Assembly: GCA_964395285.1 (NCBI GenBank)
Contig: CAYNAP010000002.1
Location: 1 to 37,102, forward strand
Direction of reading: 5' to 3'
From: an uncultured Candidatus Saccharibacteria bacterium
GTDB lineage: Bacteria > Patescibacteriota > Minisyncoccia > Sungbacterales > SURF-37
Length of the DNA: 37,102 bases
The position numbers and the translations under genes were made by a program. This document shows positions 2,513 to 2,965 of this stretch, one piece after another (positions within the stretch are counted from its first letter, which is position 1; every line of letters starts with the position of its first letter). The notes beneath the pieces were generated by a model. It had not been told where the DNA came from and ran no database searches. It saw only the letters and a program-made list of their open reading frames with translations.

Positions 2513-2911
2513 ATGCAAACTCAAAATTCAAATCTCAAAAGTCAAAACCACAACTCAAAAGTTAAAACTGATTTAAAGCAACGCTGCTATTTCTTTTCCA
2601 TCAGTGTTATTAAGTTTATCAGCATTCTGCCTAACACGAGAGCGTTTTGGATCATTGTTGATCAGCTGCTGCGTTCAGTCACCTCTATTGGTGCCAATAT
2701 CGTAGAGGCCAAGTCATCAAGTTCGCGAAGAGATTTTATCAAGTTCTATGAAATAGCGTTAAAATCGGCCAACGAAACGAAGTATTGGCTGGGATTATTA
2801 CGCGATGCCACCGGAGCGGATAAGAGCCGCATCGCTGAATTGTTGGCAGAAGTGGGTGAAATTCCCAACATTCTTGGTTCAAGCTTGCTGACGTTGAAAA
2901 ACAAGAGGTAG
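2513..2911 (+). CDS. Four-helix bundle protein (23S rRNA intervening-sequence protein / S23p family, same superfamily as DGR Avd)
   Basis: Family signature QLLRSVTSIGANIVEAKSSSSRRDFIKFYEIALKSANETKYWLGLL. The first ~19 codons are encoded by the heptamer-repeat arm. Confidence 0.75.
   Translation: MQTQNSNLKSQNHNSKVKTDLKQRCYFFSISVIKFISILPNTRAFWIIVDQLLRSVTSIGANIVEAKSSSSRRDFIKFYEIALKSANETKYWLGLLRDATGADKSRIAELLAEVGEIPNILGSSLLTLKNKR
2517..2570. repeat. Left arm of an imperfect ~52-bp inverted repeat built from CAAAAGT-like heptamers
   Basis: The left arm aaactcaaaattcaaatctcaaaagtcaaaaccacaactcaaaagttaaaac matches the reverse complement of 2912-2965 at roughly 43 of 52 positions by manual alignment. 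Confidence 0.7.
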
Positions 2912-2965
2912 TTTAAAAGTTTTAAGCTATGGTTTTGAGCTTTGACTTTTGACTTTTGAGTTTAT
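2912..2965. repeat. Right arm of the inverted repeat enclosing the four-helix-bundle gene
   Basis: Sequence gtttaaaagttttaagctatggttttgagctttgacttttgacttttgagtttat starts directly after the stop codon. Confidence 0.7.

Follow-up and report, generated by a model that had tools for sequence, protein, structure and literature searches.

A four-helix-bundle gene in the loop of inverted heptamer arrays: a probable intervening-sequence-type cassette between protein-coding genes

The window analyzed here, by which we mean the whole stretch of 37,102 nucleotides (nt), is one contig (C2) of a 917-kb, 104-contig, 83%-complete assembly (G000) whose size and gene content are like those of Patescibacteria (candidate phyla radiation [CPR]). 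It contains a gene for a four-helix-bundle (4HB) protein enclosed by inverted arrays of short repeat units, and the region from 2484 to 3015 is probably an intervening-sequence (IVS)-type hairpin cassette lodged in the spacer between two codirectional protein-coding genes. By the mechanism that we propose, the cassette would have no promoter of its own and would be transcribed by read-through from the upstream gene; its arms would pair in the RNA and hide the region of the start codon; the RNase III of this genome (gene at C3:4728-5123) would cut the duplex, as happens in the IVS of Coxiella and Leptospira; and the cut would separate the flanking cistrons and limit expression of the 4HB gene. 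The 4HB protein would be the sequence-specific partner of arrays of four to five units, among them the arms around its gene and scattered gene-less arrays of that type, and gene and arms would spread together into intergenic spacers or the loops of hairpins. We attach different weights to the parts of this proposal: the reading as an insertable cassette is its strongest part and rather likely, cleavage of the window stem by RNase III is, by analogy, an evenly balanced call, and specific recognition of the arrays by the 4HB protein is plausible but falls somewhat short of probable.

The window cassette and its arms

The open reading frame (ORF) at 2513 to 2911 (+ strand) encodes a protein of 132 amino acids (aa) that in a profile search matches PF05635 (23S_rRNA_IVP; 77 bits against a cutoff of 33.8, profile positions 5 to 105 of 106) and nearly the whole of the TIGR02436 profile (four helix bundle protein; 89.5 bits against a cutoff of 24). 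It is similar to a solved Bacteroides protein (PDB code 2RLD; E = 3 × 10−16), the entry for which has five chains, and its similarity to such solved relatives suggests a pentameric ring fold. The motif given for 23S_rRNA_IVP proteins is GxxRxxxSxxxNxxE (PMC3936711); the window protein has R-x3-S-x3-N-x2-E intact (R54, S58, N62, and E65), and in an alignment of 12 4HB sequences no variation occurs at S58, N62, or E65 and hardly any at R54. There was no Pfam, NCBIfam, or PADLOC match besides PF05635 and TIGR02436, and no transposase or nuclease catalytic domain was among the profile matches. Comparison with the five closest homologs gave a pN of 0.20 to 0.30 against a saturated pS of 0.85 to 1.0, indicating purifying selection. 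The upstream neighbor encodes an 821-aa proline-rich surface protein (stop codon at 2485 to 2487), the downstream neighbor encodes a 790-aa DUF2341/LamG protein starting at 3133, 221 nt past the 4HB gene, and all three genes lie on the + strand.

The hairpin around this gene is composite. Its inner left arm (2517 to 2570, + strand), recovered by a repeat scan and similar to a hairpin on contig C41 described below, consists of CTCAAAA/GTCAAAA-type heptamers plus a AAAACCACAAC box and encodes the first ~19 codons, and the inner right arm (2912 to 2965, +), an inverted array of TTTTGAC/TTTTGAG heptamers, begins right behind the stop codon. Outside these lies a pair built of 9-nt units: an outer left arm of the ATTCTAAAT type (2484 to 2512, +), which starts at the upstream stop codon, is similar to its counterpart in the 4HB cassette of contig C50, and is paired by the predicted fold at 2484 to 2510 with ~2969 to 2993; and an outer right arm (2966 to 3015, +), a 9-nt-period array of ATTAGAATA, ATTAGAGCA, and ATTAGGTCA that is homologous to the C50 arms and has a left-side partner for its first half only. 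To all appearance the inner cassette lies within the loop of an outer, or older, hairpin.

The repeat scan recovered the inverted pairs 2498-2563/2917-2982 (66 nt, 74%) and 2524-2569/2918-2963 (46 nt, 74%). A first-pass annotation, made from the letters of the window, had described an IVS-protein/Avd-like 4HB gene bracketed by an inverted repeat complementary at about 43 of 52 positions. Gene and repeat are both upheld, by the profile matches and by a best local alignment in which 2517 to 2563 is complementary to 2917 to 2963 at 38 of 47 positions; the figure itself was close, the best register of 2517-2570 against 2912-2965 being a 2-nt shift with 40 of 52 ungapped matches, and the hairpin extends farther out than the arms it named. 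The same annotation had asked whether A-rich composition alone explains the complementarity. None of 2,000 dinucleotide-preserving shuffles of both arms reached the observed score (z = 8.9), and 7 of 2,000 shuffles of 7-mer blocks, in which the heptamer vocabulary is kept, did so (mean, 18.5, versus 29 observed); the shared A-rich vocabulary therefore gives part of the arm score, and the colinear complementarity goes beyond it. The flanking inverted-repeat score of the gene is the second highest among 768 crude ORFs of the genome. When 2480 to 3000 was folded as RNA, it gave one terminal stem from ~2484 to ~2993 (dG, −144.9; z = −4.0; 0 of 100 shuffles as stable), an imperfect stem of ~70 bp around the gene, with the AUG in a small internal loop.

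A scan of 2300 to 3300 found no sigma-70-like promoter on the + strand upstream of the 4HB gene and no terminator-like site, and Rfam searches found no known RNA family in or near the cassettes. There was likewise no Rfam match to rRNA in the window, and the flanks are protein-coding genes, so the cassette does not lie inside helix 25 or 45 of a 23S rRNA; no 23S rRNA gene was found in the 83%-complete assembly.

Arms, cargo, and gene-less arrays across genomes

The 4HB family is carried by 31 of 41 genomes (G000 and 40 relatives), with up to 9 copies in <1 Mb. We surveyed 32 of the loci in these 41 genomes and 80 from one-genome-per-species contigs, related loci being found with a five-sequence alignment query; the 80 span Patescibacteria, Bacteroidota, Clostridia, Planctomycetota, Acidobacteriota, Nitrospirota, Elusimicrobiota, Actinomycetota, Fibrobacterota, and others. 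The loci were chosen for their similarity to particular queries, so the percentages are not to be read as frequencies for the family as a whole, and the survey z-scores come from mononucleotide shuffles, dinucleotide and block shuffles having been applied to the window arms only. Inverted repeats with a z of at least 5 were present at 72 of 100 usable 4HB loci, with an arm period of 7 nt in 56 of the 72, 8 nt in 10, and 9 nt in 5. A score of at least 20 was reached at 49 of 95 typical 4HB loci, 23 of 26 loci of the window subfamily, and 13 of 21 loci of GxxExxY genes (sister cassettes, see below) versus 6 of 763 control ORFs of G000 (five cassettes set aside). Inverted arrays abut start and stop in about 50 to 90% of the sampled 4HB genes versus <1% of the controls, with the left arm typically at −43 to −9 relative to the start and the right arm at +2 to +41 relative to the stop; an array has four to five units, with a steep fall at six. 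Among the 92 4HB loci with a neighbor called on each side, the gene is codirectional with both neighbors at 74 and opposite to both at 1, and the median gaps to the neighbors' stop and start (41 and 44 nt) equal the arm length. As the arms are symmetric, this orientation bias concerns the gene: either the cargo needs host transcription in its own direction or no other orientation is tolerated. From phylum to phylum, this layout, a 4HB gene in the loop of inverted arrays, goes with the protein family.

Each protein subfamily has its own type of repeat unit. In the common 4HB subfamily the unit read toward the gene is NAG plus four variable bases; TAG occurs in 32 of 56 loci, against ~11% expected, and the opposite reading has TAG in 9. 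For this unit the counts are 32 for TAG, 9 for TAA, 4 for TGA, and 15 for CAG and AAG variants. We considered stop codons in three frames as the purpose of this unit; they are unlikely to be the whole story, as TAG dominates, CAG and AAG occur, and the window unit has no inward stop. Relatives of the window protein were recovered in 129 of 401 Patescibacteria genomes searched, with a best hit of E ≤ 1 × 10−25 in 40, and those listed in these 40 genomes are 42 to 75% identical to it. At the 23 of 26 loci of this window subfamily (those with an ORF of normal length) that score at least 20, the arms are always of the A-rich YAAA(A)GT/CAAAATG type, and the start codon is often within the arm. Synonymous sites of the subfamily are saturated (pS, 0.72 to 1.0), and unconstrained DNA of such age would be randomized, yet the unit type is kept. 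By dominant arm motif, typical 4HB loci have 47 YAG, 11 CG, and 3 YAAA arms, the window subfamily has 0, 1, and 22, and GxxExxY loci have 0, 14, and 2. Since all three kinds of cargo and unit coexist within the same genomes of Patescibacteria, the differences are not a matter of host base composition. The AAAACCACAAC box is not common to the whole window subfamily, being limited to the closest homologs (approximately L155, L156, L158, L159, and L165) and to hairpins on C41 and C34, and we draw no claim from it.

G000 has six PF05635 matches, counting the window gene, and the first-pass suggestion that other copies be examined for flanking repeats had a clear outcome: all six are associated with inverted repeats of 7- or 9-nt units. 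The repeats flank four of the four full-length genes and one interrupted copy, and that of the sixth brackets a suffix domain; in the whole genome only 11 of 768 crude ORFs score at least 20 for a flanking inverted repeat, 5 of them 4HB or GxxExxY cassettes. Arms are built of TTAAGTRAA 9-mers on C1, AAACCCT heptamers on C46, CTAATTRNN 9-mers on C50 (3824 to 4802, L004; a 150-nt insert bounded by inverted repeats splits the right arm), and ACGAAAT/ACGAAGC heptamers on C39 (2611 to 3451, L006; the gene is interrupted by a structured insert of ~110 nt). The copy on C98 (2392 to 2710, L005) is fused to a TIGR04258 suffix domain, around which its repeat lies.

Three of these copies show further peculiarities. 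The C39 gene is split after ...VEAND by three G+C-rich hairpins that have no Rfam match, and the frame resumes at NYQVKISRKE. The C50 insert (~150 nt) has terminal inverted repeats GAACCCATCTCAAAAAT, and its ends resemble a hairpin element, aaacctttaccc...gggtgctcaat, that has a small GIY-YIG gene inside in G026 (L212) and is gene-less in G007 (L192) and G002 (L191); this would be, judging from sequence, a third family of hairpins with a gene in the loop. In the C98 protein (207 aa) a 37-nt inverted repeat of AATTGGTCC-type 9-mers brackets the suffix domain and its inner arm is translated (NKSNWSNKTNLARWSNWTN), and the domain may have come as an in-frame fused cassette.

Arrays also occur without a gene. 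G000 has 17 YAAAR arrays (four units), 22 CGAAT arrays (three units), and 13 YAG arrays (four units), against 0, 0, and 1 in the block-shuffled genome, which served as the chance expectation; a reversed-pattern YAAAR control was not used (CAAAACT-like arrays match both readings). About one-third of the array sites are short gene-less hairpins. One of these, C41:2802-2916, is the gene-less counterpart of the window cassette, with a 25-nt loop in place of the gene: C41:2802-2854 is identical to the window left arm (2517 to 2569) at 44 of 53 positions (83%), and C41:2881-2916 is identical to the right arm (2928 to 2963) at 31 of 36 (86%), so that the window arms are more alike to the C41 arms than complementary to each other. 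More YAAAR hairpins lie on C3, C44, C22, C26, and C16. Within the window, both arrays that the first-pass annotation had pointed out are present: four perfect CAAAAGT heptamers inside polX (30574 to 30601, +), without an inverted partner, which are in frame and encode SKVKSQKSK, and a solo array of ~9 YAAAAGN heptamers (22705 to 22767, +), also without a partner and followed by a G+C-rich hairpin. At least five YAAAR arrays of four units were found in 28 of 40 genomes with a close subfamily member, 21 of 89 with a weaker 4HB hit, and 22 of 272 with no hit (28 of 40 versus 22 of 272, Fisher P = 3 × 10−17, uncorrected for shared ancestry). Similarly, the median number of CGAAT arrays per genome is 33 with GxxExxY and 0.5 without it (Mann-Whitney P = 1 × 10−5, again uncorrected for shared ancestry). 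The co-occurrence of array and gene has exceptions in both directions.

Further arrays were seen in and around housekeeping genes. A Mur-ligase-like gene of the window (14765 to 16261) contains the in-frame heptamer arrays AAGCTCA (2.7 units, 15781 to 15799) and a perfect CAAATTC (4.6 units, 16038 to 16069), encoding the segments SSKLKAS... and SNSKFQIPNSK at positions where enzymes of this kind presumably have shorter loops; C9:8706-8737 has the same perfect CAAATTC array. Gene-less array hairpins flank recA on both sides (C37:7441-7517 and 9439-9514; TTAAGYGAR units, the type of the C1 4HB arms) and likewise rplI (C34:300-420 and 1072-1200; AATTTTC/ATTGAAA units).

A sister system has the same layout around an unrelated cargo. 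The cassette at C42:7578-8042, which has TACGAAT arms and lies between a parA-like and a parB-like gene, encodes a 132-aa GxxExxY protein (TIGR04256, PD-(D/E)XK fold), and a second such cassette lies on C25; the junctions occupied by GxxExxY cassettes in G000 are parA-parB and prfB-ftsE. In relatives the arms are of CGAAT, GCGAAT, or ACGCAA-type units. The C42 arms recur nearly unchanged as empty hairpins at C75:3223-3288, C22:6648-6714, and elsewhere, among them window positions 16243 to 16305, where CCTACGAATTACGAAT...ATTCGTAATTCGTAGG takes up the space from the Mur-ligase-like gene to the gene after it; the window has one more gene-less hairpin of CGAAT-type units at 29288 to 29358, between the gene at 28648 to 29289 and polX. 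GxxExxY and 4HB cassettes have in common their architecture, intergenic position, co-orientation with neighbors, and empty copies, and they can occupy the same junction. The GxxExxY cassettes differ in their nuclease-like fold and in the spacing of their CGAAT-type arms at 7 to 11 nt, and their nearly identical empty copies suggest a more recent spread than that of the 4HB cassettes. About 10 of the 46 PF13366 (GxxExxY) matches in relatives sit within uninterrupted frames of 518 to 896 aa and are read through (e.g., G007:C8:17438-17776, G006:C8:6705-7043, and G009:C3:26033-26377).

Insertion at orthologous junctions and competing explanations

Many 4HB cassettes of various subfamilies sit upstream of a PrgI-like gene, a single-copy membrane-protein gene that we fetched from 35 relatives, and its junction with the preceding gene (~330 aa) could be read in 29. 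This junction is empty and tight in 8 of the 29 (spacer, 1 to 29 nt) and holds a clear hairpin of arrays alone in G013, G006, and G031, the units in G006 being of the ACGCGGA type, as are those around a GxxExxY gene of its own. It is filled by a 4HB gene in eight genomes, by GxxExxY in G004, and by the small GIY-YIG gene in a hairpin of the other kind in G026. Degenerate states occur in G029, which retains C-terminal codons of GxxExxY, and in G018, which retains arms around an interior of ~150 nt; G002 and G007 have another short structured element in common, G037 has a short plain palindrome, and the 64-nt spacer of G023 is ambiguous. Within one genus, in which the PrgI-like proteins are 61 to 67% identical, G010 has a 17-nt spacer and G003, G009, and G011 have 4HB genes whose products are 29 to 44% identical and whose arms are unrelated. 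Conversely, G000 and G009, which belong to different genera, have 4HB proteins that are 71% identical with the same arm unit, and their PrgI-like proteins are 61% identical. At filled sites the upstream stop codon coincides with the beginning of the left arm or lies only a few bases away from it, and 4 to 5 nt separate the end of the right arm from the next start. Several insertions or replacements, independent of one another, are needed to account for these data. The hint in the first-pass annotation of a mobile or recombinogenic cassette is thereby borne out, both by the gene-less C41 copy and by the filled and empty orthologous sites in relatives. As the 4HB protein has no recognizable catalytic domain, the likeliest route of movement would be host recombination or repair using the arms as homology.

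A more stable history is seen in Bacteroidota, where one cassette has had the same two neighbor genes throughout Flavobacteriales and Cytophagales, its arms having changed unit in concert; the two arms are kept alike by selection or copying. For the upstream surface protein of the window, other genomes hold only paralogue-like hits of 33 to 61% identity. In G018 (C68, L121) a 41%-identical homolog of it is followed directly by a 4HB gene of the common subfamily (ORF 2228 to 2740), and in G003, G009, G013, and G017 4HB genes lie ~3 to 8 kb from surface-protein homologs on the same contig.

Several observations weigh against the reading of the locus as an insertable cassette with an RNA stem and a recognizing protein. 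The 4HB copies of G000 have no arms in common, each having its own unit. The 22 of 272 genomes that are rich in YAAAR arrays and have no detectable 4HB relative indicate that arrays can persist or arise without the protein, and the shared ancestry of genomes is uncorrected in the co-occurrence test given above. The stable inheritance across Bacteroidota orders implies that movement is rare. No target-site duplication was seen at the filled PrgI-like junctions, which, together with the lack of a catalytic domain in the 4HB protein, argues against a conventional transposon. For the junction in the window itself no empty allele was found, the same-genus genome having no flanking surface-protein gene, and the neighbor and control genes of the survey are crude ORF calls. 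Finally, arm mismatches show no G-U-compatible excess on the sense strand (117 versus 140 A-C; 362 transversions) and hence no positive sign of selection for pairing at the RNA level, so that a process at the DNA level may keep the arms alike; this test is weak, most mismatches being unit variants, and it neither supports nor excludes the RNA stem.

The alternative that fares best is that the 4HB gene is a resident, vertically inherited host gene that has never been mobile, its arms being a processing or stability hairpin that insulates it in operons and its patchiness the result of loss. We regard this as unlikely. It would account well for the cassette kept with both neighbors across Flavobacteriales and Cytophagales with concerted change of the arms, for the strong operon co-orientation, for the absence of target-site duplication and transposase, and for the different arms among the copies of one genome. 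It has difficulty with the single genus in which the same junction is once empty and three times filled by divergent 4HB genes, with the 4HB proteins of G000 and G009 that share arms and are more alike than the neighboring gene products, with the presence of GxxExxY and GIY-YIG cassettes and degenerate remnants at the same junction, and with the gene-less near-copies of arms scattered in the genome.

Somewhat less probable again is an origin in which the array hairpins are primary, as slippage repeats or REPIN-like palindromes, and small selfish genes settle in their loops without the 4HB protein recognizing the arrays. The specificity of the unit for the cargo subfamily within the same genomes, its retention while synonymous sites became saturated, the way array abundance per genome follows the matching gene, and the cap at four to five units, which plain slippage would not lead one to expect, all speak against such an order of events, although the many gene-less arrays and hairpins of G000, the three unrelated cargo families found in hairpin loops at one junction, the nesting of the inner window cassette inside an outer hairpin of another unit type, and the inverted heptamer arrays of Xanthomonas, for which no gene has been named (PMC4692102), agree with it.

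It is very improbable that the window gene encodes Avd, the accessory protein of a diversity-generating retroelement (DGR), with the reverse transcriptase lying outside the window. Avd is like the window protein in being a pentameric, nucleic-acid-associated 4HB protein, and we take the two to belong to the same superfamily. The window cassette differs from a DGR in having no reverse transcriptase, template repeat/variable repeat (TR/VR) pair, or target gene, and to our knowledge inverted heptamer arms are not a described feature of DGRs. The first-pass annotation had already seen no reverse transcriptase or TR/VR pair in the window; when the search was extended, there was no PF00078 match anywhere in the 917-kb, 83%-complete assembly, control genomes responding as they should, and the repeat scan found no TR/VR-like repeat adjoining the gene. 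Moreover, the five other G000 copies and the 1 to 9 copies in 31 of 41 related genomes of <1.3 Mb sit singly between unrelated genes, and the DGR/Avd reading falls even though PF05635 has been mentioned in a DGR context (PMC10053308). Chance complementarity of low-complexity A-rich and T-rich stretches, to which the considerable mean score of block-shuffled arms might lend some color, has a negligible probability given the shuffling results, the rank of the score among 768 ORFs, and the repetition of the layout in 23 of 26 homologous loci.

Relation to known systems and further features

The closest known counterpart is the 23S rRNA IVS. In Coxiella burnetii the IVS in helix 45 forms a 28-bp stem, with tandem GACAGAT heptamers, whose loop contains an S23p ORF, and it is excised by RNase III at mapped sites, the cut removing a putative ribosome-binding site (Warrier et al. 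2016, PMC4990558); passages of the same paper, which cites Ralph and McClelland 1993, name Coxiella, Leptospira, Brucella, and Xanthomonas as having ORF-bearing 23S IVS with S23p. The likeness to such elements proposed in the first-pass annotation is well founded: both have a PF05635 protein (S23p in the IVS) in the loop, a long stem formed by terminal inverted repeats, tandem heptamers in the arms, and the start-codon region in or near the stem, and the IVS too is carried in the sense orientation in the host transcript and has been proposed to be selfish or once mobile. The window cassette differs in lying between protein-coding genes and in its YAAAAGT-type unit; excision by RNase III has been shown for the IVS and would apply to the window by analogy. 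Selection sets the two apart as well: it is clearly purifying on the window 4HB gene, but the ORF in Coxiella has been reported as decaying and probably untranslated. We read the window element as an IVS-type cassette outside rRNA, and we found no such cassette outside rRNA described.

REP/REPIN-RAYT systems (REP, repetitive extragenic palindrome) are similar in having one gene between inverted copies of a short repeat, in the dispersal of hairpin copies without the gene between other genes of the genome, and in a repeat abundance that follows the gene. RAYT differs in being an HUH-Y1 enzyme of known chemistry, the 4HB protein having no catalytic motif; the 4HB arms are tandem 7-nt arrays rather than a single REP palindrome, and empty copies are few (~5 hairpins of the window unit type). 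The window itself has a RAYT-like IS200/Y1 transposase gene (231 aa, minus strand, ~5623 to 6318, within 5571 to 7260), beside which lie REP-like palindromes GGCCTTACGAGGCCGGGCCTCGTAAG at 5571-5607, 6412-6440, 7003-7031, and 7225-7260, and a second RAYT fragment with similar hairpins is found at C24:2196-2456.

Intergenic heptamer repeats have been described in Xanthomonas (GGGAATC) and Nostoc, with 70 to 75 convergent inverted heptamer pairs per Xanthomonas genome that were read as G-quadruplex formers, no associated gene being named (Rehm et al. 2015, PMC4692102); where that paper turns to cyanobacteria, it cites the heptamers of the short tandemly repeated repetitive (STRR) sequences. Those of Xanthomonas and Nostoc are like the 4HB arrays in being intergenic, transcribed tandem 7-nt units, mostly about four per array; the 4HB arrays differ in bracketing a specific protein family and in their A-rich units. 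Genes for 23S_rRNA_IVP proteins with a conserved motif have also been noted inside cas operons, with no mention of repeats (PMC3936711). Literature searches on PF05635, on S23 ribosomal protein with repeat, and on GxxExxY found nothing joining the 4HB family, arrays, and heptamer repeats.

What the window adds is a clear example from a divergent 4HB subfamily with its own unit, a gene-less twin in the same genome, the three-way link of cargo and arm motif, the genome co-occurrence counts, and the series of 29 junctions. Three loose ends, the origin of rRNA IVS, the function of S23p/4HB proteins outside DGRs, and the overrepresentation of intergenic heptamers, are possibly one phenomenon. We offer, tentatively and with less confidence than its single parts, a wider model in which 4HB proteins would be the specific partners of tandem heptamer arrays in many bacterial genomes, a 4HB pentamer would read four to five units of a subfamily-specific 7-nt word, gene and inverted arrays would form a self-propagating cassette in transcribed spacers and hairpin loops, rRNA IVS would be copies that landed in rRNA, and the GxxExxY and small GIY-YIG cassettes would be parallel nuclease-based systems. 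A parallel for a ring reading an array is TRAP, which reads spaced triplets. If this is true, the function of the 4HB family becomes testable by simple binding and RNase III assays, and operon maps, notably those of the reduced CPR genomes, hold unannotated inserted cassettes that probably cut polycistronic RNAs. The annotation of the window itself is firm, with one filled cassette, two empty sister-system hairpins, and several solo arrays, of which two are translated within housekeeping genes.

A few features lie apart from these subjects. Downstream of the cassette, a 10-nt-period array of AATATCAATA, AGTATCAATG, and AATATCCATA at 3086 to 3145 overlaps the start and first codons of the DUF2341/LamG gene (3133 to 5505). 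That gene has an internal tandem duplication of ~1.1 kb, NNWYSPNWLYRKKITLQSS...DQQQGKIDGG occurring twice almost identically, and antisense ORFs are duplicated within it (3276-3539 and 4383-4646). Elsewhere in the assembly, three PaaX/Cas2-like genes (WRVILFDVPE; C64:2750-3392, C73:361-1047, and C33:7818-8652) each have a near-perfect palindromic hairpin of 40 to 50 nt on each side. The window also contains an ordinary tmRNA (36040 to 36435; tag, ANLFSKAKSALASAFGVNSFAPAFV) and an ordinary tRNA-Arg(CCG) (24029 to 24102).

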